Shown here: positions 210-20,992 of the stretch, in pieces
How the letters are laid out: every line of letters starts with the position of its first letter
Numbering within the stretch: the first letter of the stretch is position 1
Assembly (NCBI GenBank): GCA_026396415.1
Contig: JAPLWX010000004.1
Span: forward strand, 1 to 63,176
Length of the DNA: 63,176 nucleotides
Direction: 5' to 3'
From: Candidatus Micrarchaeota archaeon
GTDB lineage: Archaea; Micrarchaeota; Micrarchaeia; Anstonellales; Anstonellaceae
Program-made: the position numbers and the translations under genes
The notes under the pieces: generated by a model
Told to the model about the DNA's origin: nothing
The model's database searches: none
Seen by the model: the letters and a program-made list of their open reading frames with translations, nothing else

Positions 210-1311
210 TCAGGAAGTCGCGGCAATTCCGATTTTTGGCTGCGCGAGCATGTTTTCGATTTCTTTTTCCACCTCGTGGCGCAGCCTGTATGTGTCCCCC
301 ATCATCGCATATCCCTGCCAGCCAGAGTTTGAGAGGAGTATCCTGCTTTGCTCGATTTCTCCTCGCGCGTATTTTGACCTGAAAAGCGCAAGCCTGCCAA
401 AAACCCTGCGCACGTTGCTTTTCTTCAGGATGCGGAAATGGTAGAATGCCCTGAAGCCGAGAAGCTGCACACCTGAATCAAGCGGAATTATTTTCGTCTT
501 GTCAGGATGGAGTTCTATCTTGAGGCTTTCGCGCAGGAAGGCGTCAATCTGCATTTGCCACTCTTCCAATTGCTTCCTGCTACGATGCAGTATTATGAAA
601 TCGTCAACATAGCGCAGATAATATTTTGCGCGCAGCTTGTGCTTCACAAAATAATCAAGCTCGGAAAGATAGACGTTTGCAAAAAATTGGCTTGTCAAAT
701 TCCCCAATGGCATTCCTTTGCCGGGCGTATCCGTTTTGTGATTTTCGAGGATGCGCGAGATGAGCCAGAGCAAGTCCTCGTCCTTTATCCTCCTGCGCAG
801 GATGGAAAGGAGAACTCTGTGGTCAACAGTTTCGAAATAATGCCGGATATCGGCTTTGAGCGCAAAGCCGACAATCGGATTTTGACTCTCTCTCTCTCTC
901 TCTGCTTATTGTCCTTCCATTTCCAGTCACTCTTCGCGTGAAGCAGCCGAATCTCTTCAAGGCGGCAAGCGTGCCCTTTCCCCTCCTGTTTGCGAAAGTG
1001 TCGCTGATGAAACGACATTCGAAGATTGGCGAGATTACGTTGCAGACTGCGTGATGGATTACCCTGTCGCGGAAGTGCGAGGCTGAGATTTTCCTTGTCT
1101 TCGGGTCGCGGATGGTGAAGGTTGTCAGCGGGTGCGGCTTGTAGGTGCGTGTGAGAAGTTCCCATTGGAGGGCGTAAAGGTTGTTGTTGAGGTTCTTTTC
1201 AAACTCGATGACATATTCCTTCTTTGTTTTGCCCGAGCTGGCGTTAAGGAAGGCATCGTAGAGATTGTCATAGTCGCAGACTTTGGCGAAGAGATTGCGG
1301 TAGGTTTTCAT
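210..1311 (-). pseudogene. DGR reverse transcriptase, frameshifted at an (AG)9 tract (possibly phase-variable OFF state)
   Basis: N-part from ATG 1311 (MKTYRNLF...RDPKTRKISASHFRDRVIHHA...GKGT). C-part is in another frame (GFALKADIRHYF...GMPLGNLTSQFFANVYL...YLRYVDDF). The frame switch lies at 886-903. The GxPxGxxxSQ motif is DGR-type. Confidence 0.92.
886..903 (-). repeat. (AG)9 dinucleotide microsatellite inside the RT gene
   Basis: Plus strand ctctctctctctctctct. (AG)10 or (AG)7 would restore one continuous RT frame. Confidence 0.95.
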
Positions 1312-5999: not shown

Positions 6000-6224
6000 T
6001 TAAATAAGCCACCACGGCGGCATTTTTTCTTGACGCAGGTGATAGAAATAATGTATGACAGCACTTATCCAAAAGATAAACGATATTGACTGAAGAAATG
6101 GGGGGAAAAACTCTTGAAAGTTTGCGGGAGTTATAAAACTAGCTGCGAGAAGTCCGAATGCAATTGTAGCTGCAAATCCCGCACGGTTTAGTTCGTGGGC
6201 TGCCACCTGTTCGTCGTTCATCAT
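6000..6224 (-). CDS. Small hypothetical membrane protein (cargo)
   Basis: 74-aa ORF with two hydrophobic segments. Confidence 0.45.
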   Translation of the reverse strand: MMNDEQVAAHELNRAGFAATIAFGLLAASFITPANFQEFFPPFLQSISFIFWISAVIHYFYHLRQEKMPPWWLI

Positions 6225-6286
6225 CCTTTTTTTAAGAAGGCAAAGCTTTTACAGCTTCTTGCCACCATTAGTGAAACGGTATTCAT

Positions 6287-6709
6287 ATGCACAAACCCAA
6301 ACCTCCTTCGTTCAAAATGCAGCATAGACGATATTGGGAACTTATGAAACTAAAGAAATGGCAATTATGGAAAGTTTATGAGAGTGGGTTATCTTTTGAT
6401 GAATCCGAACTGGAAAGCAAACTAAGGAAGGAAAATATGGCGGAATTTTTCGCCAAATATCTCTTAGACGAAGAGATTTCTATGCTAAGAAAAGCATTCA
6501 AAAAATATCCTCGAAAGTTAAAATGTTATCTTCACTCCGAGTTCAAAGCTCTCGTGACGAACCTCGGCCTGAAGGCCGAGGCTTCTGGAACAGAAGGGGG
6601 AGCCACGCGCCTCGGTGCTCCTCCACTGCCTGAAGGCAAGTGGCTCCCGCACCGAGGTTCGTCAGTGGATAAGAACGACAATATTGTGGGCTATGAACTT
6701 ACACAATAG
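6287..6709 (+). CDS. Hypothetical protein; 3' end runs into the transposase remnant and MITE
   Basis: ORF track only. The first ~75 aa look like a plausible charged protein; the remainder overlaps mobile sequence. Confidence 0.3.
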   Translation: MHKPKPPSFKMQHRRYWELMKLKKWQLWKVYESGLSFDESELESKLRKENMAEFFAKYLLDEEISMLRKAFKKYPRKLKCYLHSEFKALVTNLGLKAEASGTEGGATRLGAPPLPEGKWLPHRGSSVDKNDNIVGYELTQ

Positions 6710-7045
6710 CTCATTCTCCCTTGCCACCGCATTCCTGCTCCTCACCTTGTCCCCAAACTTGGCTTTTACCATGCTGTTCGTGCTTTCCACGTTGCTTCTC
6801 TTGTGGTAGTGCTGGTAAAACTCATCCTGATTTAGCTGGAAATACAGGAACATCTTGCGCCATATCCCCGTCCCTTTACTCTTTCCTGTGGCGTTGGACT
6901 TGAAAGGGATAAACGCCCGTCCTCCCACGTCCTTGACGACTTGGTAATTGTCCCTGCTTGAATATGCCTTGTCTGCGCTGACCTCCACCATATTGAAGCC
7001 TCCTTGTGCCGTTGCAGCCACCAATGGAGCGAATTGTGGGCTGTT
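6518..7045 (-). pseudogene. IS5-family (DDE) transposase C-terminal fragment, interrupted by a MITE
   Basis: SPQFAPLV...SADKAY...YHKRSNVESTNSMVKAKFG...HNIVVLIH, then after the insertion ESFELGVKITF*. The N-terminus is missing. Confidence 0.85.
6555..6665. mobile_element. About 111-bp IS200/IS605-type MITE
   Basis: Terminal 13-bp IR TGACGAACCTCGG/CCGAGGTTCGTCA; hairpins CCTCGGCC-TGAA-GGCCGAGG and CCACTGCC-TGAA-GGCAAGTGG. Removing it restores the transposase frame. Confidence 0.75.
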
Positions 7046-7279
7046 CTTAGAACGCCGTATATACTGAAACAGTGGGAATAATCTATACGGGGCTGCTCAC
7101 GAGAAAGGATAGGAGATGAAGAGCTGCTTGAGACAATCATCCCGATACCAGATAAGAAAATACAGGAAAAGATAATCTCAATTGCTGTTTCTAGCTCACA
7201 GAAAGCAAAAGGATTGATGAAAGAAAGCGAAGAATTAAAAGAAAAAGCAAAAGCCGTATTTTTACAAGAATTAACGTGA
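7034..7279 (+). pseudogene. Restriction-modification specificity (HsdS/type IIG-like) C-terminal fragment
   Basis: LWAVLRTPYILKQWE*SIRGCSRERI...IIPIPDKKIQEKI...; in-frame stop and no start codon. Confidence 0.55.
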
Positions 7280-7296
7280 GGCTATAAGCAACCGTT

Positions 7297-7629
7297 TTAC
7301 GCCTTTCGCCCTTTCCCTCCTCCAAACCACACATTAGGGAAGTTATCGCTTATCGTTTTGATTGGGCGCTGCTTGCGGATTTTCTCCCTCATTTTGCAAT
7401 CGGCAGCCGCAAACCTCATTATCTTCTTGCATAGGGCTTTACTGAGTTTAAGCTGTTTTAGCTCCCTGCCAAGCTGCTTTAGGTCTGCTGGCAGCTTCAC
7501 AACCACGTATGGGTCGCCTTTTGCCTTCCTTCTTTGTTCAAGCAAACGATGCTTCTCTGTCGGATTGCCAAGCGAGGTAAGAGCCGTTTTTGGCACTGAG
7601 ATATAGCGAAATTTAAACTTCGTTGCCAT
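7297..7629 (-). CDS. Hypothetical basic protein (cargo)
   Basis: 110-aa ORF with GGTGG Shine-Dalgarno and an AT-rich promoter-like sequence upstream. Confidence 0.55.
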   Translation of the reverse strand: MATKFKFRYISVPKTALTSLGNPTEKHRLLEQRRKAKGDPYVVVKLPADLKQLGRELKQLKLSKALCKKIMRFAAADCKMREKIRKQRPIKTISDNFPNVWFGGGKGRKA

Positions 7630-7820
7630 TCAGACCACCAGAGCTTACTTGGATAACCATGTTATAATATATTTCTGACAGAAATATTCGCAATGGAATA
7701 AATAGGCTGTTTTGGCAGATTAAGAGGTGTTTTTGGAACTTTCTGAGCAAGCCCCCGACTTTATGAGCAAAACCGACTTCCTGAGCAAGGCTTGTATTGA
7801 GAACCTTGCTCAGAAAGTCG

Positions 7821-8126
7821 CTATTTTTCCTCGTAAGCGAGTTTCGCCTGGCTCATTTTGTTTGCCTTTGCCTTTTCTTGTGCTTCTTCAATAATGTAAT
7901 CGTCATGGTCGGGAAAGGTTGAGAGATACAAAACCGCGCTTTTTAAACTCCCAATCTGCTTTAGAAGAGCCCTCTCAAAATGAGGAAGTTTTTTGCATTT
8001 ACTACACTCATAAGACGTAGTTCCATCACTACTCTCCTTTTTCCACGTTTTTAATTCATTTTCCTCGACTTCGAGATGACATAAATCACATGTCGGTTTA
8101 TTTTCCTCAATTTCTTCCTCCGATAC
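7821..8126 (-). CDS. Zinc-finger-containing hypothetical protein lacking a canonical start codon
   Basis: Open frame VSEEEIEENKPTCDLC...ECSKC...LAYEEK*. GGTGA Shine-Dalgarno is followed by GTA instead of ATG/GTG. Confidence 0.4.
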   Translation of the reverse strand, partial: VSEEEIEENKPTCDLCHLEVEENELKTWKKESSDGTTSYECSKCKKLPHFERALLKQIGSLKSAVLYLSTFPDHDDYIIEEAQEKAKANKMSQAKLAYEEK

Positions 8127-8295
8127 TTCTCACCATTTAAAAATATGGAAAAGGAGCTTTTTACAGGTTTAGGAATAGTCCATAAACCTTTATACAATTT
8201 TATGTATTTCTCCTCGAAGAACCAAAGAGGCTTCCTCTTACTTCGATATTATCTCGATAAAAAACAGACTTCTTACACCTTTTTGTTCGCTTTCG

Positions 8296-11037
8296 CTACC
8301 TGTATCTCAGGAAAGCCCCTATCCCATAAAAACTGCCAAGGAACTGCGCGCCCTCCGCGGTGTCGGGCGAGACCACGAAGATGTCGATGCCCTGCCTGTC
8401 TGCAAGTGAGATTAAATCGTCCACCAATGAGACTTCAGACTCCACCTTCACCGTGCCGCCGATTGCCTTTATTTTTTCTGCCAGGTCAAAGGGGGTTTTC
8501 GAGGTGACATACTGCGCCTCGAGAGTGGTGGTGTCCACAAGCTTTGCGCGCTTGTAGGCGACGCCTTCGGAAATCAGAAGCTCCTTTGCCTGCTTGGACT
8601 CGAGCGCTTTCCTTACTTCAGCCTCGCCGTATGTGGCAAGCCCGCCTGCCACCACTTCTTTTATGAACCTCTCGACAATCACGCGCTCGCGTATGGCCTG
8701 CTGCTCCGAGAGGATGTCGGTGGACTTTGCCATCACTTCCCGCACGCCGTATTCGTCTGTGTAGCCCGTGTCCACCACGCCCAGCACCTTTATCTGGTAG
8801 TTGAAAGGCGACATCTTGAAAAAATCGTCCTTTGCAGGCCCTGGCCCGCCGATTATCACGCCCTTCACGCTGTTGACAAAGTACTTGTCCATGTATTCGC
8901 CGATGCGCTTGTAGTAAAGCTCGATGGATTCCTCTATCAGCCGCTCGTACCTGCGCGCGCTGTTGTGCACGATGAAGCCGTTTGCCACGAAGTTGAATGC
9001 GTTTGGCACCGTCAAATCCACGTATTCGCGCTCGCCGGTGATTGGTATTTTTTCCGCCACGCGCGCAACCCCGATGTCGTTTGAGAGCCACTTTGCAAGC
9101 ACCTTTCGGGCAATCCCCTCTTTGCCAAGCGTGCGTGCGCGGGAAAGCAGCACGCCTTCGATATTCTTCCTGAATGCCGCCCGCCCGAGCGGTTTTTTGT
9201 TCCTGAAGAAATTGCTTGCCGCGTGGAAGTCGCTTGTGGAAAGCCCGAGCGAACGGGCAAATGCAAACACTTCCCTGCCGTCAACCGGCACCTGCTCCAC
9301 AAACTGCATCTTCACTTCCCTGTGCATGATATCCTGCAAAGCATCCGACTTGTCTTTCCTTGAAAAGCCTATTTCCGATGAAAAGATGGCCAATGAGGCG
9401 GAATCTGAAATGCTTGTGCACCACTGCGGGTTGCCAGCCACCGTCTTTTGCGAAAATGATGCGCGGATGCCGAAGCGCAGGAGAATGGACTGAACCTGGC
9501 GCATCATCTTTTCCGAGCGCATTGCGATTTCCACGCGCTTCCCGTGTAGGTAGCCCTCAGCATCGTAAAGCCCCGAGAGGAAGGCGGCCTGGACCTGGAG
9601 AGGGGAGCACTGTATCTGCACAGGCACGCATCTTTCGTCTGATGCCGCGAGGATTTGCGGCACTTCGCCTGCCACGAAATCCGCAAACTCCTTGCTGTAA
9701 ATGCGCAGTTCGTAATAGGGCTTCTTTGCAAACGAGCCTTTCTGCCCTGTCTTGTCCACCTTGCGGCAGACCGCAATTATCCCGACCGCGTCCAGCACCG
9801 CCCGGGAATATTTTTCAACCATCTGGTTGTAGCTTTCGTAAATTATTACCCTGTTCCCATCCAGCGTGCCGTCACCCGCTATTACTCCGAGAAGATAGGC
9901 AAGCCGCGGCGTGTAGGTGGCGGGAAGCTTAAGCGCAGGCGCTGCAAACTTCTTTTCGTCGAGCTTGAGGCCATAAAGTGCATACATCTGCCTGATCTTT
10001 CCAGCAGAAAGTGGAATTTCCCCCCGCTCCATCCTGCAGATTGCCATCTGCGTGATGCCGAGTTTTTTTGCCACTTTTGACTGCGGCCAGCCAAGCTCGC
10101 TTCTGCGGAAGCGCAGGCTTTCATATTCCCCCTCGTCAAGCGAAATTCTCGTTTCAGGCTTGTACCTGATTTCCACGTCTTTGCCATCGTGGTGGATTTT
10201 TTTGGCAACCAGCACCCTGTCGCCAATTTTCAGGTCTTTTGCATATGTTTCCCGCACGCCATTTTCCCCGATTGTGAAAAACCTGTGCCACGCCGTTGCA
10301 ACTATTTCCATTTTCGGCGCATGTGCCACTATTTTGTAGGCACTTTTGGAGCGAGTTTCAAACCGGTCTGAGCATTGCCAGTCGCCTATCGAAAATTCCG
10401 AGAGATCCGCTCCTTTCAGGTGCGAACCAGCGGCGACATCGCCCACTCTCGCAAGCGTGCCGTCTGACATCTGCACCATAGTATCGGGAGCAAGGCACTG
10501 CCCGCCTTTTCGTATTTTTGCATGCGCGGTGGAATTCAGGCGATGAAGTATGCGCGTGTTGGTGCCGCGAAGCTCGGCAAGCGTGCATTCGCGCCCGTCA
10601 AGGACTACGAGCCCGTATGAGTCCGTTACCTCCAATGTGCGCTCAAGGGGCTCCAGGAAAAAGCGCGAGTCGCATCGGTAAATCTGCACCATGATCGGCT
10701 CGGGAGGATAGATGGTGAAAAGCTCGATGACCACCTTTGCCGGGTTGTCAGATACATTGCCGCAGAAAATTGCAACTCCTGAGTGCGGAGCGACATTTCC
10801 GTAGCTTTTAAGATGATGCAAAATCCTCTCAAGCGCATCCACCACGTTCTTTCTCGTGCCTTTGCTTTTGATGTTGGTCGCCTGGCCTGCCTCGCCGCGC
10901 AGCTTGTTTGAGGTCTCATGTATTGCTTGCTCTGACGGAATGTACACTGAAATAAGCTCGGTGCCTGAGCCTTTCATTGCCTTGAGGTGCGCAAGCTGCT
11001 TTTTCAGCTCGTACTTGAGTTTTGTCTTTTCTTCCAT
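8296..11037 (-). CDS. prf1: Peptide chain release factor aRF1 with intein
   Basis: GTELISVYIP, NIKS, YRCD, KGGQ|intein|SARRYER. Confidence 0.96.
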   Translation of the reverse strand: MEEKTKLKYELKKQLAHLKAMKGSGTELISVYIPSEQAIHETSNKLRGEAGQATNIKSKGTRKNVVDALERILHHLKSYGNVAPHSGVAIFCGNVSDNPAKVVIELFTIYPPEPIMVQIYRCDSRFFLEPLERTLEVTDSYGLVVLDGRECTLAELRGTNTRILHRLNSTAHAKIRKGGQCLAPDTMVQMSDGTLARVGDVAAGSHLKGADLSEFSIGDWQCSDRFETRSKSAYKIVAHAPKMEIVATAWHRFFTIGENGVRETYAKDLKIGDRVLVAKKIHHDGKDVEIRYKPETRISLDEGEYESLRFRRSELGWPQSKVAKKLGITQMAICRMERGEIPLSAGKIRQMYALYGLKLDEKKFAAPALKLPATYTPRLAYLLGVIAGDGTLDGNRVIIYESYNQMVEKYSRAVLDAVGIIAVCRKVDKTGQKGSFAKKPYYELRIYSKEFADFVAGEVPQILAASDERCVPVQIQCSPLQVQAAFLSGLYDAEGYLHGKRVEIAMRSEKMMRQVQSILLRFGIRASFSQKTVAGNPQWCTSISDSASLAIFSSEIGFSRKDKSDALQDIMHREVKMQFVEQVPVDGREVFAFARSLGLSTSDFHAASNFFRNKKPLGRAAFRKNIEGVLLSRARTLGKEGIARKVLAKWLSNDIGVARVAEKIPITGEREYVDLTVPNAFNFVANGFIVHNSARRYERLIEESIELYYKRIGEYMDKYFVNSVKGVIIGGPGPAKDDFFKMSPFNYQIKVLGVVDTGYTDEYGVREVMAKSTDILSEQQAIRERVIVERFIKEVVAGGLATYGEAEVRKALESKQAKELLISEGVAYKRAKLVDTTTLEAQYVTSKTPFDLAEKIKAIGGTVKVESEVSLVDDLISLADRQGIDIFVVSPDTAEGAQFLGSFYGIGAFLRYR
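8962..10497 (-). mobile_element. Intein (512 aa) with XRE-HTH insertion and LAGLIDADG endonuclease
   Basis: Starts CLAPDT, ends FVANGFIVHN, +1 Ser; LLGVIAGDG and FLSGLYDAEG blocks. Confidence 0.93.
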
Positions 11038-11115: not shown

Positions 11116-12294
11116 CTATGCAAGGCGCTTGCCATCCTTGTCCATGGGCACGAGCGAGACTTCGAATTCCTTGATGAAATAGCCCATGAGCGGATCGTTC
11201 ATTATGCGCTCCTGCATCTTCTCGGCCTCCTTCAGGTCCCTGCCCATCACAATCCAGGTGCGAAGGCCCAGGTGCTTCACCCCGTAGAAAAAGCCGGCGT
11301 TCTTGTACGGGCCGAACGTCTTGAAGTAATCCGGGACGTTCATGCTCCCGATTGCAAACACCTGCCCGACGTGGTATTGGTCCATGCCGAGGTAGTATTT
11401 TACCGCCAGCGCACGCGCCTGCTGTATTTCGGAATGGTAGAACATCCCTAAGGACGGGTTTTGCTTCTGGGTGTGCGAGTCGTCCTGCACCTGCCCGCTC
11501 TTTCTGACCCTGTCGTACACGAGGTCGAGGAAGGTGTTCAGGTGGGTGTTGCCGTCCACCCTGTAGTATTCGTTCGTGTGGTAATTCTTCACGCCCGCCG
11601 TCATCGTTATCTTGAGGTTCTCGAAAGTCGGGTCGGAATCGAGCGACCCTCGCAGCACCTTTTTCTGCTCGTATGCATGGGTGCAGAGGTTCACTATGCT
11701 TTTCACCCAGTTGCCCGCGATTGTCCCGTTGTGGCCGTAAGCCTGCTTCATCAATTTCTCGACATCCTCCTCGGTCTCGATTCTAAGCTGGTGGCGCTTG
11801 CCCCGCAGGCCGTATTCGAGCACTGCCCGCTTGGAAAGCAGCATGCCCTCCATTTCCAGCGCGACTTCCTGCGCGTGGAGCATGCCGCAGTTGAACGGCG
11901 CGTCTTCCACTTCGATGTCATGGTAGCTCCTTGTAGAGTGGAGACGGCCCTTTTTCAGCATCACGTTGCCGTGCGCGGTCAGGTGCACGAAAATGTCGAT
12001 GGGAATCCCTGATTTGTAATACGGGAAATACTCGCGCATCTTGTCCTGGATGTGGGCCTTTATCTCGTCTATGATGCCCGGGGTCACAAAGGTGCCGGCG
12101 ACAGACATCCTCTGGAAGTCGACCAGCGTCCCCTCTTTCAGCTCCGCCTCGCGCTGCTCGTCGAGCGCGGTATAGAATGCTTCGGACACGTCCCTTGCGT
12201 CCGCGCAGCCCACCACTATGTGGAGCTCTATCTTCTTGATGTTGCCCGGGGGCTTTTTGATGCCGCCCTCGGCTTGCGCTGCGTTGTTTTCCAT
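11116..12294 (-). CDS. Beta-carbonic-anhydrase-like protein (paralog 1)
   Basis: GCADAR (CxDxR), AHG...NCG; degenerate second repeat YGVKHLGLRTWIVMG; AGGTGA Shine-Dalgarno before ATG 12294. Confidence 0.6.
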   Translation of the reverse strand: MENNAAQAEGGIKKPPGNIKKIELHIVVGCADARDVSEAFYTALDEQREAELKEGTLVDFQRMSVAGTFVTPGIIDEIKAHIQDKMREYFPYYKSGIPIDIFVHLTAHGNVMLKKGRLHSTRSYHDIEVEDAPFNCGMLHAQEVALEMEGMLLSKRAVLEYGLRGKRHQLRIETEEDVEKLMKQAYGHNGTIAGNWVKSIVNLCTHAYEQKKVLRGSLDSDPTFENLKITMTAGVKNYHTNEYYRVDGNTHLNTFLDLVYDRVRKSGQVQDDSHTQKQNPSLGMFYHSEIQQARALAVKYYLGMDQYHVGQVFAIGSMNVPDYFKTFGPYKNAGFFYGVKHLGLRTWIVMGRDLKEAEKMQERIMNDPLMGYFIKEFEVSLVPMDKDGKRLA

Positions 12295-12455
12295 CAGCTC
12301 ACCTTTTTCCCAATCCGCCTGCCCACACAGATATGCCATTTATCCCTGAAAAGGATTAAAAATGAAGCGCGCACCAGTCCATCAGCATGGCACCATTTAT
12401 ATAGTTTTCTTTAATGATGTTAATCACTCAAACCTTAGAACATACGGTGGCGAAT

Positions 12456-14435
12456 ATGACATTGGAAATTATTTCCTTAAATGCGCTGCCAATTTCCATC
12501 GCTTTTTTCCTGTTCGGTGCGCTCCTGCCGCTCGCCTTTTCAGCAAAACCCAAGTTAAGCTCGAAGCTTGGCTTTGGCTTTGCGATATTGGGCAGCCTCT
12601 TCGCACTGGCGGCAGGGGTCATGGCCATTTTAGGGGCAGGCACAGGGGCCTTCACCCTGGCATCGTTTGAATATGTCGGCTCGCTCTCGATAAGCATGGA
12701 CGCGCTCTCGGGATTTTTCGTCTCTTTCATCGCCTTTGTCGGCATTGCAGTTTCCATCTACTCGCTGAGCTACACCGCGGAGTATATCAAGAAAGGATAC
12801 AGCATTGCGCGCTTCGGATTTTTCTATAACATTTTTCTCCTGTCCATGATCCTGGTGGTATCTGCGCAAAATGCGCTCCTCTTCCTAATCATCTGGGAAA
12901 TCATGGCGATAAGCTCATACTTCCTGGTGACTTATGAGCACAAGGAGGAAAGCGTGCAGTCTGCCGGTTTTATCTATCTTCTTATTGCCCACATAGGCGC
13001 TGCTGCACTGGCAGTCATGTTCCTGGCGCTAGCGTCAGGGTCAGGCTCCATGGACTTTGCCTCGTTCCACCAGGCATCCTATCCGCCCTTCCTTGCAAGC
13101 GCAATTTTCATGCTTGCGCTTTTCGGGTTTGGCTCCAAGTGCGGAATAATCCCGCTGCATGTCTGGCTGCCCCTCGCGCATCCGCAGGCGCCAAGCAACA
13201 TTTCGGCACTGATGTCCGGGGTGATGCTCAAGACCGCCATATACGGGCTTGTGCGCGTCCTTTTTGATTTCCTGGGCGTTGCCAATGGCGCCGAGCTTTG
13301 GTGGGGCTTGCTGATTCTTGCGCTTGGGATGATTTCCTCAATATTCGGAGTGCTTTACTCCCTCCTGGAGCACGACATCAAGCGGTTGCTTGCGTACCAC
13401 AGCATAGAGAACATAGGGATCATATTCATCGGCATTGGCGCCGCGTTGCTTTTCTCATGGGCGCACCAGCCGGCACTTGCCGCGCTTGCGCTTTTTGCAG
13501 CGCTTTACCATACCCTTAACCATGCGCTTTTCAAGAGCCTGCTATTCCTGGGGGCAGGAAGCATCATCCACGCAACGCATGAGAGGAACATAGATGAGAT
13601 GGGGGGCCTTGCCAAATACATGCCATTCACGGCAGTGTTGTTTTTCCTGGGCGCGGCATCCATTGCGGCGATTCCGCCGTTAAACGGGTTCGCAAGCGAA
13701 GTGCTGACTTTCCAGGCGCTCCTCGCTGGCATTGAGCCAGGGGTGCAAACTTTCAATTTCACCTCGCTCGTGCTCGCAATTGCCGTTCTTGCCCTTGCCC
13801 TGACAAGCGCGCTGGCGGTAGGCGCATTCGTCAAGGCATTCGGGATACCGTTCCTCGGGCAACCACGCTCAAAACACGCCGAACACCCTCACGAGGCGCC
13901 CAAAACCATGCTCCTGGGCATGGCACTTCTCGCAGTTGGCTGCATCGCGGCGGGAATCTTCCCATCGCTTCTCGCGCAGGCGTCATCAGGCATGCTGGAA
14001 AGCCTGCATTTCGCCGGGGCGTCAAACGCCATTGTCCCATCAGCTGAGGCGCTGCCCAATGCCGTGGTCCTGCTCTTGCTCCTGGCAGGCTCGGCCCTGA
14101 TTATCTGGCTCCTAACGCTTTCCTCAAAGAAAAAGCACAACCATGTTGGCGAGACATGGGGATGCGGCTTCCCAAACGGCACGCCGCACATGCAGTATTC
14201 CGCAGCGGGATTTGCCATGCCGGTCACCAAGGCGCTTGACGCGTGGCTTAACCCGCTGGAAAGCGCATCTGCTTACGGCCCTGCCCTGTTTGACAAGTAT
14301 ATATACGCCCCGATTTCGAATGCATTCCAGTTCGTTGCGCCGCACTCGGCGATATTCAATACAGGCAGGCTGAATGATTACCTGATGTACCTGATATTGA
14401 CGCTTGCCATAGTATTGGCATATGCAATTTTGTGA
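12456..14435 (+). CDS. hyfB: HyfB/NuoL-like proton-translocating antiporter subunit
   Basis: WEIMAISSYFLV, PLHVWLPLAHPQAPSNISALMSG, KRLLAYHSIENIG, NHALFKSLLFL, PPLNGFASE, TWGCG. Confidence 0.9.
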   Translation: MTLEIISLNALPISIAFFLFGALLPLAFSAKPKLSSKLGFGFAILGSLFALAAGVMAILGAGTGAFTLASFEYVGSLSISMDALSGFFVSFIAFVGIAVSIYSLSYTAEYIKKGYSIARFGFFYNIFLLSMILVVSAQNALLFLIIWEIMAISSYFLVTYEHKEESVQSAGFIYLLIAHIGAAALAVMFLALASGSGSMDFASFHQASYPPFLASAIFMLALFGFGSKCGIIPLHVWLPLAHPQAPSNISALMSGVMLKTAIYGLVRVLFDFLGVANGAELWWGLLILALGMISSIFGVLYSLLEHDIKRLLAYHSIENIGIIFIGIGAALLFSWAHQPALAALALFAALYHTLNHALFKSLLFLGAGSIIHATHERNIDEMGGLAKYMPFTAVLFFLGAASIAAIPPLNGFASEVLTFQALLAGIEPGVQTFNFTSLVLAIAVLALALTSALAVGAFVKAFGIPFLGQPRSKHAEHPHEAPKTMLLGMALLAVGCIAAGIFPSLLAQASSGMLESLHFAGASNAIVPSAEALPNAVVLLLLLAGSALIIWLLTLSSKKKHNHVGETWGCGFPNGTPHMQYSAAGFAMPVTKALDAWLNPLESASAYGPALFDKYIYAPISNAFQFVAPHSAIFNTGRLNDYLMYLILTLAIVLAYAIL

Positions 14436-14440
14436 TTGAT

Positions 14441-16081
14441 ATGCTTGAAATTCTTTTCACCCTTATCCTGGCAATAGCGCAGGTTGCATTCGTTCTCTTG
14501 GCAGCCCCGCTTTTGATCGGCATCATGCGCAAGGTCAAGGCGCGCTTCCAGGGGAGGGTTGGAAGCCCCCTCATCCAGCCGTACATTGACCTTCAGAAGC
14601 TGTTCTCCAAAGGCACCGCCAAAAGCGCAGTGACTTCGTTCATATTTGCAATCGCCCCGGTGGTTGGCTTCGTGTCGATCGCCATAGCCGCATTGATGCT
14701 TCCAATCCTCTCCTCATCGCCGTTATTGACCGGAGGCATCATCGTTTTCATTTATCTTTTTTCAATCGGCAGGTTCCTGACCGCGCTTTCGGGCCTCGAT
14801 GCCGGCAGCGCATTTGGAGGCATGGGCTCAAGCCGAGAGATGCTGTATTCCATTTTCATCGAGCCTGCGCTGTTTTGCATTATCCTTCTCATAGCCACAT
14901 CAGGCAGCTTAAGCATTGCCCCCCTCGCGCCAGACACGGCATCCTGGCAGGCCTCGATCTCCACCCCGGCCTACTGGCTCATCGCCATCGCATTGTTCAT
15001 AGCGATACTTGCCGAAACAGGAAGGCTTCCGTTCGACAATCCGGCAACGCATTTGGAACTGACCATGGTCCATGAAGCGATGATACTTGAAAATTCCGGG
15101 CCAAATCTTGCGCTTATAGAGTGGGCAAATGCAATCAAGATATTCCTGTTCTTCTCCCTTATGGGCATCCTTCTGATGCCAGGGGACATCCAAGCAAGCC
15201 TGCTCTGGCCGGCAATCCTCCTGGCGTTTTGCGTGGCGTTGGGAATATTTGTGGCGGCAGTCGAGAGCATCAGCGTCAAGGTGCGGCTGTTCAAGGTCTC
15301 CGAGCTTCTTATATTTTCCATCCTGCTTGCGCTCCTGGCATTCCTGACGCGCATCTTCGCTGTCAAGCCTGAGAGCGGGATGCAATCAGTCCTGGCGCTT
15401 GCCATGCTCCTCGCCGCAATCTATTCCATATTCAGCCTCACCTTCCGTGACCGCATCAAGCTTTACATAATACAGAGCATTTGCCTTGTCCTCATCCTTC
15501 TCCAAATTACCCTCATTGACGGCGCAGAAGGCATGAACTACCTGTTCCTGCTGACCATTGCCATCTTCAAGATTGCCGTCATCCCGTTTGTCCTGTACAA
15601 CAGCATGTCGTATGGCATGCAGCTCATGCCGCTGCAGTTTTATCTCCGGTTCGGGAAAGCCAGGAAAAAATTCAAATTGGACCTGGAAGCCGACCCTCTT
15701 TTCATGACCGCGCCAATGACGACTTCCCGCGCGCTTGTCTATGCAGGCGTCCTAGTCGCGCTGTCTTTCGCAGTCTCGTCGGTCCTGGGCGGCACCACAA
15801 TCATGCTGCCCATGGCAGTCTCGCTCATCCTCATCGGCATGCTCATCATCGCATCCAAGACCCACCTGCTCCTGCAGCTGCTTGGCTTCCTGATGATGGA
15901 AAACGGGGTCGTGCTCCTCCCATATGCCCTGCACATCAACATGCCATTCATTGGCGAATTGGTCACCCTGTTCGACCTGGTGATCCTGGTGAGGATCACA
16001 TTGCTCCTGTCATTCAAGATGAAGGAAACCCATGGCACGCTGGACACCAAGAAGCTCGTCGAACTGGTGGAAAAAAGGTGA
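14441..16081 (+). CDS. Fused HyfC(NuoH-like)-HyfE membrane subunit
   Basis: RKVKARFQGRVG, GSSREM, ETGRLPFDNPATHLELTMVHEAMILE (HyfC); C-terminal half with YIIQS and GFLMMENG (HyfE). Confidence 0.85.
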   Translation: MLEILFTLILAIAQVAFVLLAAPLLIGIMRKVKARFQGRVGSPLIQPYIDLQKLFSKGTAKSAVTSFIFAIAPVVGFVSIAIAALMLPILSSSPLLTGGIIVFIYLFSIGRFLTALSGLDAGSAFGGMGSSREMLYSIFIEPALFCIILLIATSGSLSIAPLAPDTASWQASISTPAYWLIAIALFIAILAETGRLPFDNPATHLELTMVHEAMILENSGPNLALIEWANAIKIFLFFSLMGILLMPGDIQASLLWPAILLAFCVALGIFVAAVESISVKVRLFKVSELLIFSILLALLAFLTRIFAVKPESGMQSVLALAMLLAAIYSIFSLTFRDRIKLYIIQSICLVLILLQITLIDGAEGMNYLFLLTIAIFKIAVIPFVLYNSMSYGMQLMPLQFYLRFGKARKKFKLDLEADPLFMTAPMTTSRALVYAGVLVALSFAVSSVLGGTTIMLPMAVSLILIGMLIIASKTHLLLQLLGFLMMENGVVLLPYALHINMPFIGELVTLFDLVILVRITLLLSFKMKETHGTLDTKKLVELVEKR

Positions 16082-16085
16082 AAAT

Positions 16086-17549
16086 ATGCTTGAACTTATC
16101 ATCCTCCCTCCGCTTATAGCCGGGGTTCTTGCATTTGTATTCCACCGCAGCCCGCGCCAGGTCGAAGCCATTGCAGTCGCCGGCGCAATCCTTGCAGCCT
16201 TCTTCGCATTGCTTTCGGTAAATGCCTTCCTCGGGCCGGAAGTCGGCTTCCGCGATTTCTATGGGGTATTCTATATGGATGCTGTCTCCGGGCTTTTCAC
16301 AGTGCTTACCGCAGTGGTCGCCTGCTTTATCTTCCTTTATTCAGTCGGCTACATCCGCCACGAAGTGAAGGAGAACATTGTGGAGAGGGACCAGATCGGG
16401 CTTTATTACGGGCTGCTCTCCTTCTTTTTGGCAGCCATGCTTGCCGCCACGCTGGCAACCCATCCGGTTGTGATGTGGGCCGCCATAGAGGCGACCACGC
16501 TGGCGTCGGTGTTCCTGATAAGCTTCTACCAGAACTCAAGCGCAATCGAAGCCGCCTGGAAATTCTTCATCATCAATTCGGTGGGAATCCTTCTGGCGCT
16601 TGCCGGCATACTGTTCCTTCTGTTTGCCCTTCTTCCGGCCGGCTCTACATCGGGCGGGGATTGGGACAGCCTTATGATAGTCAAGGAAGGGGCCAACCTG
16701 CTCTTCCTCAAAATAGCATTCGCATTCATCCTCGTCGGCTTCGGGACCAAGGTCGGCCTGGTCCCGCTCCACGTCTGGCTCCCAGATGCGCACAGCCAGG
16801 CGCCCACGCCGGTCAGCGCCATCCTCTCGGGCCTGCTGCTCAATATCGCATTCTATGGGATTGTGAGGACATACCAGGTCGTGGCGCCTTATGACTCCAT
16901 GGTCTCGTTTGCATCCGGCCTCCTAATCGGCTTTGGCCTCCTGTCGCTTGCCATTGGCTCGCTCCGCATCTATTTCCAGCACAACATCAAGCGCATGCTT
17001 GCGTATTCCAGCGTGGAAAACATGGGAATTGTCACGCTCGCATTTGGCCTGGGCGGCCCGCTCGGAATCGCCGCCGCCCTGTTCCACATGGTCAGCCATT
17101 CCCTTGCCAAGCCTTTGGCATTTTTTGGAAGCGGAATAATCGCATTTGCATTCAAGACCAAGGAAATGCCATTCATCCGGGGCGCGGCGCAAATCATTCC
17201 GCTGGTTGCCATCCCGTTTGTTTTCATTGCCGCGGGCCTGGCAGGCAGCCCACCGTTCGGAACCTTCCTCTCGGAATTAGGAGTGCTGGCAGTTTCCCTG
17301 TCAACCAGCCAGATGCTGATTGCCGCCCTATTCATAATTTTCACCACCATTGCATTCGCCAGCCTGCTCTACCGCGTTTCCGCCATGAGCTTTGGCTCCA
17401 CGCCGGAAGGCATATCCGCTTTTTCGCCTTCCCTCACCATGATGGTTTCATTTGTGGCATTGCTGGCACTCACGGTGTACATGGGCATACTGCCCCCTCC
17501 CCAATTCATGCATCTCTTGGAACTGGCAGTGCACGCTATCATAGGTTGA
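16086..17549 (+). CDS. hyfF: HyfF-like antiporter subunit
   Basis: WAAIEATTLAS, EAAWK, GFGTKVGLVPLHVWLPDAHSQAPTPVSA, KRMLAYSSVENMG. Confidence 0.9.
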   Translation: MLELIILPPLIAGVLAFVFHRSPRQVEAIAVAGAILAAFFALLSVNAFLGPEVGFRDFYGVFYMDAVSGLFTVLTAVVACFIFLYSVGYIRHEVKENIVERDQIGLYYGLLSFFLAAMLAATLATHPVVMWAAIEATTLASVFLISFYQNSSAIEAAWKFFIINSVGILLALAGILFLLFALLPAGSTSGGDWDSLMIVKEGANLLFLKIAFAFILVGFGTKVGLVPLHVWLPDAHSQAPTPVSAILSGLLLNIAFYGIVRTYQVVAPYDSMVSFASGLLIGFGLLSLAIGSLRIYFQHNIKRMLAYSSVENMGIVTLAFGLGGPLGIAAALFHMVSHSLAKPLAFFGSGIIAFAFKTKEMPFIRGAAQIIPLVAIPFVFIAAGLAGSPPFGTFLSELGVLAVSLSTSQMLIAALFIIFTTIAFASLLYRVSAMSFGSTPEGISAFSPSLTMMVSFVALLALTVYMGILPPPQFMHLLELAVHAIIG

Positions 17550-17553
17550 TGAT

Positions 17554-19131
17554 ATGGACGGACAAACAAAACAATTCATCCGCGCCCTCGAATCTTCAGT
17601 CAGGGCCGGGAGCTTGAATGACTCGTCTGAGAAAGGAGGCTGCCTTTTCTTTCGCGTGCTTCCAAAATACCTGATCCCGGTTTGCCGCGCCTGCATGTCA
17701 AATGGGGCGGTTTTTGATTCTGCATTTGTCTCGTCAGCCGACCAGGGCAGGGGGGAGTTCAATGTTTACTATCTCTTCCAGGTTGCAGCCATCCACCGCA
17801 TGGTTGCAGTCACGTCCAGGGGCAGCGCGTTTGACGCCCTTTCCGAAACGGTCAATGCGGCATTATGGGACGAGCGAAAAATCCAGGACCTTACAGGCTT
17901 GCGCCTGGCAGGCATCCCGGATTCCCGCCCCCTCCTGTTCCACCCTGAAAGCGGCTTCCCTGCAACCCACCCCATTGGCGGGATGCCATTCAAGCGCCCC
18001 AAAAACAATGCATACCCCATGATAGGCACCGGCGTGGAGGGGGAATTCGAGGTCGCAGTGGGCCCGGTGCACGCAGGCATAATCGAGCCAGGGCACTTCA
18101 GGTTCCACGTCTTGGGGGAAAAAATAAACAAGATGGAAGTGAGGATGTTTTACCTGCATCGCGGCATTGAAAAGGCGGCAGAAGGCAAGCAGGCAGATGG
18201 CATACTGCCTTTAATAGAGCAGATTTCCGGCGATGAAGCAATCGCCAACTCAGTCGCCTACTGCTCTGCAGTGGAGCAAGCCCTTAAAATACAGGTCCCG
18301 AAGCGCGCAGAGGCCATCCGCGCAATCTGCATGGAGCTGGAGCGCATTTACAGCCATCTTGCAGACCTGGGGGGCATGGCGACCGATGTCGGTTTCACTT
18401 TGCCTGCCTCACGCTTCGCGGTTTTGCGGGAAGACGCCATGAGGCTCAATGCAGAGGTTTCCAAAAGCCGCTTCCTGCACAATCAATGCATCGTGGGAGG
18501 CGTGAGAGCTGACCTTGATTCAGTCAAGACGGCAAAAATCGCAGGCACGCTTGGGCAGATGCTTTATGCGCTTGAGGAGCTGGAGCGCATGGTGTTCACC
18601 TCTTCAACTTTCCTGGACAGGGCATTCCAGGCAGGCACTGTGTCTCGGGGAATTGCCAGGGACCTGTCGCTTGTCGGCCCGCCTGCCCGCGCATGCGGCA
18701 TCCACTCTGACCTGCGGAGAGTGCTTCCGTATTCCGCTTATGCCCAAACCGCAATCAACGAGTCGATTGAAAAGGAAGGAGGGGACGTCCTATCCCGCTT
18801 TCGGGTCAAGCTTGCAGAAATCAATGAGTCTGCCAGGCTGATTTTGCTGCTTGTTTCCAATATGCCACCCGGTACCCTGTGCGATAAGCCATCCGCGCCA
18901 AAGAAGCGCACGGAAGCGGCAGTTGGTGTCGGCTGGGCAGAATCCCCGCGCGGCAGCTGCACCATCCTTGTGGAAATATCCCAAAATGGAGCCATCAAGC
19001 GCCTTGCCTGCCGCTCGGCGTCATTTAGGAACTGGCGTGCGCTTGAAAAAGCAGTGGAAGGCAACATAGTCCCGGATTTCCCTCTCATCAACAAGAGTTT
19101 CAACCTGTCCTATGCAGGGACTGACATGTGA
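17554..19131 (+). CDS. HyfG/NuoCD-like (Ehr) large subunit without NiFe-binding cysteines
   Basis: VGPVHAGIIEPGHFRF, HRGIEK, ELERIYSHL, ESPRG, VPDFPLINKSFNLSY; both CxxC motifs are absent. Confidence 0.9.
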   Translation: MDGQTKQFIRALESSVRAGSLNDSSEKGGCLFFRVLPKYLIPVCRACMSNGAVFDSAFVSSADQGRGEFNVYYLFQVAAIHRMVAVTSRGSAFDALSETVNAALWDERKIQDLTGLRLAGIPDSRPLLFHPESGFPATHPIGGMPFKRPKNNAYPMIGTGVEGEFEVAVGPVHAGIIEPGHFRFHVLGEKINKMEVRMFYLHRGIEKAAEGKQADGILPLIEQISGDEAIANSVAYCSAVEQALKIQVPKRAEAIRAICMELERIYSHLADLGGMATDVGFTLPASRFAVLREDAMRLNAEVSKSRFLHNQCIVGGVRADLDSVKTAKIAGTLGQMLYALEELERMVFTSSTFLDRAFQAGTVSRGIARDLSLVGPPARACGIHSDLRRVLPYSAYAQTAINESIEKEGGDVLSRFRVKLAEINESARLILLLVSNMPPGTLCDKPSAPKKRTEAAVGVGWAESPRGSCTILVEISQNGAIKRLACRSASFRNWRALEKAVEGNIVPDFPLINKSFNLSYAGTDM

Positions 19132-19140
19132 GGAATTGAT

Positions 19141-19692
19141 ATGCTGCTTGAAAACCTTCGTTTCATATTCGACCGCCGCTATACAGACACGTTGTCCTCA
19201 AAATCGGACGACCCTGCGGTGCGGGAAGTCGTGCAACTTCTCAAGCAGAGGGGGCGCTCGCCCTTCGCGCGCTCCATCCATGTCCGCATGGTGGACGCGG
19301 GCTCGCCAAACGACGTGGAACTTGAGGAAGGGCTCATGATGTCGCCCCGCGTGGACGCCGAGCGTTTCGGGGTGCATTTTGTCGCGTCCCCAAGGCACGC
19401 AGACGTTCTTTTGGTGACAGGGCCCGTTGCAAAAAACATGCACATTGCGCTTATCAAAACATACGAGGCAATGGCAGAGCCGCGCGCGGTTGTTGCCGCA
19501 GGCGACGGCGCCTGCCTTGGCTGGGAGGGAAAGGCAAACTACGCGCTTGCGGAAGGAACGGGCAAAGTGCAGGACGTGCTCCATGTTGACGTGGCGGTGC
19601 CTGGCAATCCGCCCACGCCATACCAGCTGCTGGCAGGCATGCTAAAGGCAGGCGCGGCGCTTGCGAAAAAGAGCGAGGAGCACAGAAAGTAG
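19141..19692 (+). CDS. HyfI/NuoB-like small subunit lacking the four Fe-S cysteines
   Basis: DAGSPNDVELE, ERFGVHFVASPRHADVLLVTGPV, AGDGA, VPGNPPTP. Confidence 0.9.
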   Translation: MLLENLRFIFDRRYTDTLSSKSDDPAVREVVQLLKQRGRSPFARSIHVRMVDAGSPNDVELEEGLMMSPRVDAERFGVHFVASPRHADVLLVTGPVAKNMHIALIKTYEAMAEPRAVVAAGDGACLGWEGKANYALAEGTGKVQDVLHVDVAVPGNPPTPYQLLAGMLKAGAALAKKSEEHRK

Positions 19693-19732: not shown

Positions 19733-20992
19733 CTACTTAATGATATGTTTGTTGGTGTCTTTTATACCATTCTGCAGCCTTGCCATGCCAGCCGCGTTGC
19801 GCAGGTGCGCCGGGGCGATAAGAGCGCCGTTTTCGTCTTTGTAAGAGAGCGGCAACTTGATGTCAAACCATTTGGTGAAGCGGTTGCCCAATGGATCACT
19901 CATTATCCTCGTGTGAGCCATGTCTGCCTGGCGCGCTGTATTGCACATGATTGGCCAGAAATCCAGCCCTAGGTGCTTTATTCCGTAATAATATGCCCCC
20001 ACCTGGTATGCGCCAAGCGGCCGCCTGTGCTGGTCAAGTGAGGCGCTTCCGACTGCAAAGACCTGGTTTGCGGCGTATTGGTCGCCTATGTAATATTCAG
20101 CTGCGGATTTCCTTGCATCCGGAAAATCGGTCATATGGAAACAGCCTATGAGCGGGCTCTGCTTGGCAATCCGGTGTTCATCATCCCTGGGCTTGCCATT
20201 TCCCCTGATTGTTTCATAAACTTCATCCAAGAGGGTGCGGTACTTGTTCCCGTCCACCCTGAGGTATTCGTTGGTGGCGTAATTCTGGATGCCCGCGGTG
20301 ATATGTATGCCCAGATGGCGCAGGACAGGATCGCAGTCGAATGCTGTCCGAAGTTTTTCCTTCTGGTTGTGGGCGTGTATGCTCAAGTCGTAAATGGGCT
20401 TTATCCAGTCCACGATCGAGCCTTCCCTGAAGTTGTAGAAAATCGCCAGGAATTGCTTTATCTTTTCCGGAGAGTTGATCCGGATGCTCTCGCGCACCGA
20501 ATTCTTGAGCGTGAGCAGGGGCTTCCGTTCAAGAAGCTCTTGCTCGATTTCCTTTGCCACAATGTGCGCGCTCATCATGCCGCAATTGATGATCGAATTT
20601 GGGACGACCTCGATGTCGTGCATGCTGTGCCTGCCGCGGTTGGCTTCGTCCTTCAGATGCGCATCGCCATGGGTGTTGACATGGATAAAAAACTCGATTT
20701 TCACTCCTTTCTTGTCGTATTCGTAAAACTGGTTGAGCTTCTGGAAAATTTTCGACTTGATTTCGGCAACGGTGCTTCTTGTCGCAAACGTTCCGGCGAC
20801 TGACAGGCGCTCGACTTCCACGATGATTCCTTTTGCGCGGTAATCCTTCGTCGCCTTATCCATTGCATTGAAGTATGCTTCGGAAATGTCCCGCGCATCG
20901 GAACAGCCAAGGATTATGTGGATCTGGATTTCCCGCACATCTTTCTCGACCGTGGAAATGTTGGAGGCTTGTGACTTTGGTTCATCCATCAT
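19733..20992 (-). CDS. Beta-carbonic-anhydrase-like protein (paralog 2)
   Basis: GCSDAR, THG...NCG, YYGIKHLGL; collinear similarity to 11116-12294. Confidence 0.6.
   Translation of the reverse strand: MMDEPKSQASNISTVEKDVREIQIHIILGCSDARDISEAYFNAMDKATKDYRAKGIIVEVERLSVAGTFATRSTVAEIKSKIFQKLNQFYEYDKKGVKIEFFIHVNTHGDAHLKDEANRGRHSMHDIEVVPNSIINCGMMSAHIVAKEIEQELLERKPLLTLKNSVRESIRINSPEKIKQFLAIFYNFREGSIVDWIKPIYDLSIHAHNQKEKLRTAFDCDPVLRHLGIHITAGIQNYATNEYLRVDGNKYRTLLDEVYETIRGNGKPRDDEHRIAKQSPLIGCFHMTDFPDARKSAAEYYIGDQYAANQVFAVGSASLDQHRRPLGAYQVGAYYYGIKHLGLDFWPIMCNTARQADMAHTRIMSDPLGNRFTKWFDIKLPLSYKDENGALIAPAHLRNAAGMARLQNGIKDTNKHIIK

Follow-up and report, generated by a model that had tools for sequence, protein, structure and literature searches.

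An Ehr-type membrane complex of Micrarchaeota without canonical metal ligands, encoded beside predicted carbonic-anhydrase-fold proteins

The 63,176-nt stretch of DNA analyzed here (hereafter the window; contig JAPLWX010000004.1) belongs to a Candidatus Micrarchaeota genome of 1.74 Mb in 52 contigs. At 12414-19692 on the plus strand it carries five tightly packed open reading frames (ORFs), P0001 to P0005, which the ORF listing and Pfam and NCBIfam matches identify as an Ehr-type (Ech-/energy-converting-hydrogenase-related) operon. The encoded complex is of Ehr type, related to complex I and descended from the membrane hydrogenases of group 4, and we found that its large and small subunits have no cysteine at any of the eight positions that ligate metal in those relatives. 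We propose that it is a redox-dead ion translocator, most likely coupled to CO2/bicarbonate interconversion by neighboring carbonic anhydrase (CA)-like proteins, a reading to which we give an even chance. All five ORFs fit the Ehr gene set (antiporter-like, NuoH-like, HyfE-like, large, and small subunits in one operon), the operon is syntenic with the Ehr-type loci L015 and L016, the nearest non-archaeal ones, and the order of the five genes is identical in 13 of 13 Micrarchaeota loci compared. The nearest public relatives of the operon are all labeled Candidatus Micrarchaeota or Micrarchaeia, and the genes around it, including an intein-bearing aRF1, are archaeal in type according to Pfam and NCBIfam.

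The large subunit P0004 was aligned residue by residue with Escherichia coli HycE (7z0s_E, E-value 5.7e-61). In this alignment, EQISGDEAIAN of P0004 lies opposite DRVCGICGFAH of HycE, and FNLSYAGTD lies opposite LDPCYSCTD; the four NiFe cysteine positions are occupied by S, E, S, and G, and P0004 thus has neither RxCGxC nor DPCxxC, the motif pair of group 4 [NiFe] hydrogenases. Both NiFe CxxC motifs are missing from the large subunit in all 15 Micrarchaeota orthologues, among which 142 of 525 positions are invariant and the substitutes for the two motifs are likewise conserved, as E[QS][IV][SA]GD[ED]..AN and NKS[FL]N[LM][SA]YAG. A sequence-only reading of this DNA had claimed that EQISGD and NKSFNLSY stand in place of the two cysteine motifs and that this is the known Ehr pattern; the HycE alignment bears out the first point, and the second agrees with published descriptions of Ehr.

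The small subunit P0005 was aligned with MbhJ (6cfw_J, E-value 4e-23) and HycG (7z0s_G, E-value 2e-20), and GSPNDV was found opposite GSCNGC and PGNPP opposite PGCPP. The four positions that hold the cysteines of the proximal/N2 [4Fe-4S] cluster in group 4 hydrogenases and complex I are P56, V59, G123, and N156 in P0005. The third ligand site was placed at G123 because GDGAC matches GDC[AG]C of the nearest cysteine-bearing relatives. HMMER alone gave another register, with GAC of the query on GAC of MbhJ, in which Cys125 (the cysteine of GACLG) takes the place of the third ligand; Cys125 corresponds to the optional second cysteine of the GDC[AG]C motif.

A search of 5.8 billion proteins placed P0005 in a sharply separate clade of 97 sequences including the query, with 56-91% identity and 197-367 bits for the full-length members; the rest of the small-subunit family begins at 146 bits, below one clade fragment at 151 bits. 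Cysteine was found at none of the four ligand positions in any of the 97 sequences, with one of them truncated at each position: position 56 is P in 65 and S in 31, position 59 is V in 96, position 123 is G in 96, and position 156 is N in 84, S in 11, R in 1, and D in 1. Each of the next-best 24 matches outside the clade has the full set of four cysteines. Around the former cluster site of the clade, D58, D122, E60, and E62 are invariant. The sequence-only reading had allowed that the cysteine of GACLG, together with Asp/His, might serve as an alternative ligand. Among the 96 clade sequences that cover Cys125, 11 have V or I in its place, and four members, one of them a 145-residue fragment, are free of cysteine throughout. 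These results confirm that the ligand loss in the small subunit is real and not due to chance, and the changes first noticed by eye (GSCNGC to GSPNDV, GDCA to GDGA, and PGCPP to PGNPP) stand. One cysteine-less clade member, P0049, is 74% identical and carries the source label 'formate hydrogenlyase [Thaumarchaeota archaeon]'; the label may reflect either a binning error or transfer.

A structure model, which had been suggested along with the sequence-only reading, was made for the small subunit with AlphaFold 2 (AF2). The predicted local distance difference test score (pLDDT) was 83.9, and the least confident stretch, residues 51-70, directly follows the former ligand loop. Superposition on NuoB, PSST, HycG, and MbhJ with VIA-align gave Z scores of 13.3-15.6 and root-mean-square deviations (rmsd) of 2.0-3.2 Å, showing that the NuoB fold is retained in the predicted structure.

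We also surveyed the wider family, using the best 150 of 3,556 matches in a library of 1.84 billion proteins, of which 135 rows (query included) cover all four sites. Four cysteines are present in 88 of these rows, one to three in 27, and none in 20; the last group comprises two rows of the Micrarchaeota clade (the query and P0037) and 18 from other lineages, those named being Chloroflexota and Dehalococcoidia. At the ligand positions, the cysteine-less rows show patterns such as DAAD, NEGD, DEDS, DDDS, and DSSD. On a small-subunit tree, quickly built from short sequences and weakly supported, parsimony requires nine changes for the cysteine-less state, and the starred branches force at least five. 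Cluster loss thus appears to recur in at least five clades of the family. The description of the loss as unusual, given in the sequence-only reading, therefore holds in part: it is absent from the Ehr literature that we found, but it is not unique to Micrarchaeota.

Both subunit ORFs are intact, as had been read from the sequence. To assess selection, dN/dS was calculated by the Nei-Gojobori method (NG86) among the five closest loci, with 10 pairs per gene and dS of 0.43-1.11. The medians lie between 0.097 and 0.195, with the small subunit lowest (Table 1), showing that strong purifying selection acts on each of the five genes; the operon is therefore not decaying. With the conserved gene order, these values support the claim that the complex is maintained, and relaxed selection among homologues, which would have spoken for decay, was not seen. 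SufB/D is encoded in the genome, which can therefore make Fe-S clusters, so the loss is specific to P0005. In the membrane arm, alignment of P0003 with MbhH (6cfw_H, E-value 2e-31) showed that the Glu of transmembrane helix (TM) 5, the Lys of TM7, and HxxxHxxxK are kept and that a Glu is present at the TM12 site; we take these to be the ion-translocation residues. Direct reading of P0001 revealed the same antiporter motifs (WEIMAISSY, GFGSKCG..PLHVWLP, HALFK, and PPLNGFASE).

Pfam scans of the operon and the window agreed with the earlier statement that the operon lacks a NuoI/HyfH ferredoxin and maturation genes. No NuoI/HyfH-type gene (the 2x[4Fe-4S] ferredoxin-like HycF/MbhN/NuoI) was detected in the operon or the window, a genome-wide search for the NuoI family not having been made, and no maturation gene was detected in either, the hyp genes having been searched within the window. 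The rest of the window consists of unrelated housekeeping genes and encodes no redox partner. The NiFe site, the proximal [4Fe-4S] cluster, and the ferredoxin-like subunit are all lost, so no electron path is recognizable. That the complex works without electron transfer, as the sequence-only reading implied, is supported by this loss, and canonical electron transfer is very probably absent.

The genome is 92% complete, and absences from it are provisional. P0005 is its sole NuoB-family gene, and no other PF00361 gene, no other NiFe large subunit, no Pfam-detectable beta-CA (PF00484), and no cytochrome bd oxidase were found in the genome. The A and B subunits of an A-type ATPase are encoded on another contig; the genome also has one PFOR-type gene, four CPA-type Na+/H+ exchanger genes, and, as bicarbonate- or CO2-using enzymes, carbamoyl-phosphate synthase and PurE.

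The sequence-only reading dealt with the hydrogenase-like subunits and overlooked two genes that flank the operon and add a candidate non-redox chemistry. They encode paralogous proteins, 38-39% identical, which are the only copies in the genome of a family that we call A1 (type A), according to the A1 profile. No membrane helix was predicted in either protein, and neither matched Pfam; among 27 A1 members, no consistent Pfam family emerged at E-values up to 5, Pro_CA (PF00484) matching a single one at 0.098. Family A1 comprises 92 clusters from Micrarchaeota and Bacteroidota, every one annotated as hypothetical. The AF2 model of the upstream protein (pLDDT 88.9) had the tandem beta-CA 1ddz_A as its top Foldseek match (E-value 6.8e-6), and VIA-align superposed the two with a Z score of 18.8 and an rmsd of 3.2 over 264 residues; carboxysomal CsoSCA gave Z scores of 14.4-15.3. 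Each of the two model domains (36-267 and 283-407) has matches among single beta-CA chains, and VIA-align listed 50 matches, every one a beta-CA-fold protein. The modeling thus assigns the flanking proteins a predicted two-domain beta-CA fold.

The upstream flanking protein contains C45-x-D47-x-R49, H123, and C151, which are invariant across the 27 A1 members, as are G44, D50, H119, G124, N150, and G152. CxDxR occurs in the N-terminal domain only. The family has no HxxC; H123 and C151 are 28 residues apart in sequence. Hhalign set CxDxR of A1 on the zinc-site motif of E. coli Can over 13 residues only, with a probability of 7%, and found no relation of A1 to a second CA-like type, B (probability 2%); A1 is therefore not placed by profile comparison alone. 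On account of the homologue P0362, which has weak caspase/Peptidase_C14 look-alikes (0.86-0.88) in the ESM Atlas, we also considered that A1 might be a peptidase of clan CD with a His-Gly...Cys dyad, and rejected this because every VIA-align row was a beta-CA-fold protein. At the Bacteroidota-type locus L092, a SulP-family anion transporter gene (6167-7900, minus strand) is divergently adjacent to an A1 homologue (7977-9194), an arrangement seen once in 10 loci examined.

CA-like genes of three types (A, B, and C together) adjoin the operon in 14 of the 15 Micrarchaeota loci, type A copies in 10 of the 15 by the A1 profile. Type B proteins, of about 400 residues, occur in L005, L006, L007, L008, and L014, match Pfam Pro_CA at 32.4-46.3 bits (cut-off 25.7), and contain CxDxR and HxxCGA. 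Type C (L005, L007, L009, L012, and L014) is homologous to type B (hhalign probability 99.4%, E-value 8.3e-22). In five loci (L006, L007, L008, L009, and L014), CA-like genes lie 3' of the small subunit on the same strand, and PurE abuts the operon in L006 and L012. No CA-like gene was found within the flanks examined of the two bacterial loci, L015 and L016, whose small subunits bear the cluster ligands.

Three features of these neighbors deserve mention in their own right. Type C lacks CxDxR in the Pro_CA-aligned, N-terminal domain, where GH..CGA is kept, and has a new CxDxR within a segment for which type B has no counterpart in the alignment; these proteins may be inactive partners or may have a rebuilt site. 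The type A gene 3' of the Ehr operon in L008 (9682-11050, plus strand) is split over two frames, by a frameshift or an assembly error. Directly 3' of the operon in L011 (9589-11811, minus strand) lies an ORF of 740 residues in which CDDGR at 411 and HEGC at 455 form the motif pair that is canonical for beta-CAs. Neither Pfam, at an E-value of 1e-4, nor the three CA-like profiles matched this ORF.

Of 301 genomes sampled evenly across the phylum, 146 have a NuoB-type match of any kind, a tally that includes two unpublished genomes (G198 and G029). An Ehr-type small subunit, defined by an E-value below 1e-45, is present in 13 of the 301, and in 10 of these 13 a type A, B, or C gene lies directly beside it. 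The operon is patchy, being found in two of 12 sampled genomes of the window's genus (G000 and G213), and its carriers are among the larger genomes, at 1.0-1.7 Mb; the usual size in the two most densely sampled families is 0.7-1.0 Mb.

On these grounds we suggest that the complex would translocate ions (H+ or Na+) without electron transfer, its peripheral arm being no longer redox-active. Because the subunits of that arm are among the most constrained, its former active-site region probably still matters. Coupled to the CA-like proteins, the complex would be a vectorial CA that is driven by, or feeds, the membrane ion gradient, which the A-type ATPase of a fermentative cell would supply or use. 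It could run in either direction: gradient-driven trapping of bicarbonate for carboxylations, or proton-consuming dehydration for pH control. Whether complex and CA-like proteins are functionally coupled seems to us evenly poised.

Several observations weigh against this proposal. The coupling is inferred from gene neighborhood only, and the flanking CA-like genes of the window are on the strand opposite the operon and hence are not cotranscribed with it. The catalytic competence of A1 is unproven, as the family has neither the canonical HxxC spacing nor a significant match to Pfam Pro_CA, and the beta-CA fold is shared by a COS hydrolase (3vqj) and a CS2 hydrolase (3ten), which matched at Z 8.1-8.6. 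The CA-like proteins have no predicted membrane helix, unlike DabA2 as described in the available part of PMC13144422. With the three profiles, no CA-like gene was found beside the operon in one of the 15 loci (L013), nor a CA-like neighbor in three of the Ehr-bearing genomes (G148, G135, and G088). Conversely, 15 of 21 A1-bearing genomes have no Ehr-type small subunit, B and C pairs occur alone, without Ehr, in genomes such as G215, G245, and G144, and 79 Bacteroidota-type loci with A1 homologues, whose neighbors are otherwise varied, have no Ehr-like operon nearby; family A1 is therefore not bound to Ehr. The exception among them is L092, which has a weak NuoH-like match only (E-value 7e-6) in an ORF about 1.5 kb downstream of the A1 homologue. 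Finally, with four Na+/H+ exchanger genes in the genome, simple antiport is already covered.

The complex could instead be a redox-free, Mrp-like cation/proton antiporter or a proton channel, its peripheral arm a structural cap or regulator, with the CA genes sharing a role in pH and ion homeostasis and not coupled to it; we regard this as possible, although rather unlikely. Like Mrp antiporters, the operon encodes antiporter-type PF00361 subunits, two of them with charged residues intact, and no redox cofactor, and a PF00361 search of the genome showed no Mrp and no other such gene. The CA-like genes without Ehr, the three of 13 Ehr-bearing genomes without a CA-like neighbor, and the opposite strand of the CA-like genes in the window would also suit such an antiporter. 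However, Mrp antiporters have no NuoB-, NuoC-, NuoD-, or NuoH-like subunits, and constraint on the peripheral subunits studied here matches that on the membrane subunits, dN/dS of the small subunit (0.097) being lower than a cap would seem to need. The CPA-type exchangers already encoded also count against it, and without a functional tie it is hard to explain why CA-like genes of three types, in several gene orders, adjoin the operon in 14 of 15 loci.

It is improbable that the neighbors are not CAs but COS/CS2 hydrolases or non-catalytic scaffolds, with the complex coupled to that chemistry or to none. This idea draws on the two hydrolases among the fold matches, on type C without CxDxR in its N-terminal domain, and on the failure of A1 against Pfam Pro_CA. 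The best matches by far, however, are true CAs (Z 14.4-18.8), type B passes Pfam Pro_CA with both CxDxR and HxxCGA, and PurE adjoins the operon in two loci.

A complex that is still a redox enzyme strikes us as very improbable. A cluster or another cofactor would have to be held by non-cysteine ligands (D58, D122, N156, and sometimes Cys125) or sit in the former NiFe pocket, with the partner encoded elsewhere. The invariant D58, D122, E60, and E62 around the former cluster site are consistent with such a site, as are the Asp, Glu, and Ser at the ligand positions of other cysteine-less clades (e.g. DEDS, DDDS, and NEGD) and the PFOR-type gene in the genome, and a redox role of Ehr is assumed in print, in the available parts of PMC6349859 and PMC10432482. 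Nevertheless, none of the eight ligand positions holds a cysteine and some members are wholly free of it, G123 and V59 are unable to ligate metal, the operon has no NuoI-like subunit, and no bd-type terminal oxidase was found. The idea that the operon is the relic of a hydrogenase operon, decaying and about to be lost, to which the patchy distribution (two of 12 sampled genomes of the genus, G000 included) might point, is in practice refuted by the intact ORFs, by dN/dS of 0.10-0.20 at dS of 0.43-1.11, and by the invariance of the replaced motifs over 97 sequences with identities as low as 56%.

Ehr is said to have been first named in Geobacter sulfurreducens, in work of Coppi from 2005 and of Marreiros et al. 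from 2013, and Kadnikov et al. from 2020 are cited elsewhere for a 'group 4e hydrogenase' in a Micrarchaeon. In the available parts of the literature, Ehr complexes are known to lack the NiFe ligands and their function is unknown (PMC6349859, PMC6147122, PMC7894505, PMC10284858, PMC7304191), with further accounts of the missing ligands in PMC4378227 and PMC10432482. No mention of a small-subunit cluster loss or of a CA neighbor was found in the Ehr literature to the extent available; the founding Ehr papers and Kadnikov et al. 2020 lay outside the search and may mention small-subunit cysteines. Ehr itself and the loss in the large subunit were already known. The operon shares with Ehr the NuoL-, NuoH-, HyfE-, and NuoM-like subunits and the large and small subunits, the large one without both CxxC motifs. 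It differs from L015, which keeps all four small-subunit cysteines, and from L016, which keeps them and has a fused 2x[4Fe-4S] domain; moreover, relative to bacterial Ehr, the Micrarchaeota operon fuses the NuoH-like part with the HyfE-like part and a NuoC-like domain with the large subunit. The best solved-structure relatives by sequence, with the same subunit folds, are E. coli formate hydrogenlyase/hydrogenase 4 (HycE/HycG, Hyf) and the membrane-bound hydrogenase (MBH) of Pyrococcus furiosus. These enzymes have a NiFe site, three [4Fe-4S] clusters, and a ferredoxin-like subunit, whereas all of the ligands and any such subunit are absent from the operon.

Coupling of complex-I-type machinery to CO2 hydration has analogues. 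The cyanobacterial NDH-1MS/MS' complexes with CupA/CupB are complex-I-type machines that carry a CO2-hydrating protein; they are ferredoxin-driven redox enzymes that keep their Fe-S clusters, and CupA is not known to have the beta-CA fold. We count them as the second analogue of the proposed coupling. Regarding the other, the available part of PMC13144422 describes DAB2 as a beta-CA-like subunit with a complex-I-type proton-conducting subunit that performs vectorial CO2 hydration under the protonmotive force. DAB (DabA/DabB) as described there likewise pairs a beta-CA-fold cytoplasmic protein with a complex-I-type membrane protein and is free of redox cofactors; the likeness is one of principle and of adjacent genes, not of membership. 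It differs in that DabA has a membrane helix of its own and that the PF00361-type subunit is a single one, whereas the operon is a five-gene Ehr with a peripheral arm. No significant Pfam family, and hence no DabA (DUF2309-type) membership, was found for the flanking proteins or the 27 A1 members. The tandem beta-CAs (Porphyridium purpureum 1ddz; CsoSCA 2fgy, 9g4t, and 8thm) share with the flanking proteins the two-domain architecture over 257-264 aligned residues and the Cys-Asp-Arg motif, but identity is 9-12% and the His/Cys spacing is 28 instead of HxxC. A tentative extension, for which we see somewhat less than an even chance, is that cofactor-free Ehr is the membrane engine of a third, independently evolved vectorial CA, after DAB and CupA-NDH-1, and that Ehr function generally is perhaps the handling of inorganic carbon or pH. 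In such a system, a whole hydrogenase/complex-I scaffold without metal centers would couple ion flow to docked beta-CA-fold proteins.

Table 1. Features of the Ehr operon, its flanking genes, and related genes. Coordinates are those of the window unless a locus is given; the last column holds the median dN/dS.
Feature	Coordinates	Strand	Description	Basis	dN/dS
P0001	12414..14435	+	EhrA-like antiporter-type subunit (NuoL/HyfB-like), 673 aa	PF00361, E 3.7e-50	0.144
P0002	14432..16081	+	NuoH/HyfC-like (~1-310) and HyfE-like (~319-545) fusion, 549 aa	PF00146, E 1.2e-36	0.178
P0003	16032..17549	+	EhrD-like antiporter-type subunit (NuoM/HyfF-like), 505 aa as listed	PF00361, E 2.2e-50	0.117
P0004	17554..19131	+	Large subunit fused with NuoC-like domain, 525 aa	Complex1_30kDa, NiFeSe_Hases (N-terminal stretch), Complex1_49kDa	0.195
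P0004 motif 1, EQISGD	18217-18234	+		HycE alignment	
P0004 motif 2, NKSFNLSY	19090-19113	+		HycE alignment	
P0005	19141..19692	+	Small subunit (NuoB/HycG/MbhJ fold), 183 aa	Pfam Oxidored_q6	0.097 (lowest of five)
P0005 GSPNDV	19300-19317	+		Alignment	
P0005 GDGA	19501-19512	+		Alignment	
P0005 PGNPP	19600-19614	+		Alignment	
Upstream flanking gene	11116..12339	- (divergent from operon)	Family A1, soluble, 407 aa	AF2 model, Foldseek, VIA-align	
Downstream flanking gene	19733..20992	- (convergent with operon)	Family A1, 419 aa, CSDAR at residue 30	A1-profile hmmsearch, E 2.7e-152	
PurE	58861-59265	-	AIR carboxylase family, 39 kb from operon		
Type C gene	L005:10791-11990				
Type C gene	L007:11041-12384				
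Type C gene	L009:6650-7861				
Type C gene	L009:7968-9152				
Type C gene	L012:10120-11271				
Type C gene	L014:707-1942				

Some details of the genes complete the description. In NCBIfam, P0001 matches hydrogenase 4 subunit B best, with 659.6 bits, slightly short of the cut-off of 667. Its true start is probably M15, at 12456, because two orthologues have a stop codon 5' of this position; likewise, P0003 probably starts at M19, at 16086, because its orthologues have stop codons 5' of it. Residues 319-545 of P0002 match the NCBIfam hydrogenase 4 membrane subunit, and the NuoH-like and HyfE-like halves of this protein are two genes in L015 and L016. P0004 has no C-terminal extension.

Inteins occur in several genes of the window and near the operon elsewhere. 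The aRF1 gene (8296-11037, minus strand) is split by an intein with LAGLIDADG homing-endonuclease and helix-turn-helix (HTH) domains, and its orthologues in L005 and L012 seem to be intein-free, judging by ORF size. A Cdc48-type double AAA ATPase of 1427 residues (34156-38439, minus strand) also has a LAGLIDADG intein, and inteins adjoin the Ehr operon in Cdc6 of L009 and in a T2SSE-type ATPase of L013. Near the contig end, a short ORF (210-773, minus strand) encodes the C-terminal part of a reverse-transcriptase domain (RVT_1, E-value 1e-10).

Ehr complexes are widespread, being reported, in the sources as far as available, from Geobacter, Nitrospira, ammonia-oxidizing archaea, candidate phyla radiation (CPR) bacteria, and Methanomassiliicoccales. 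No function has been assigned to them since 2005. They are still discussed as electron-transfer enzymes in the available parts of PMC6349859 and PMC10432482. A clade kept under strong selection without metal ligands suggests that some Ehr complexes need no electron transfer, and the conserved CA neighbors provide a bench-testable hypothesis for the function of Ehr. DAB-type assays are suited to testing a CA-coupled Ehr complex. The finding bears on how non-redox chemistry may drive complex-I-type coupling machinery, and on carbon and ion handling in large-genome, possibly less host-dependent DPANN archaea.

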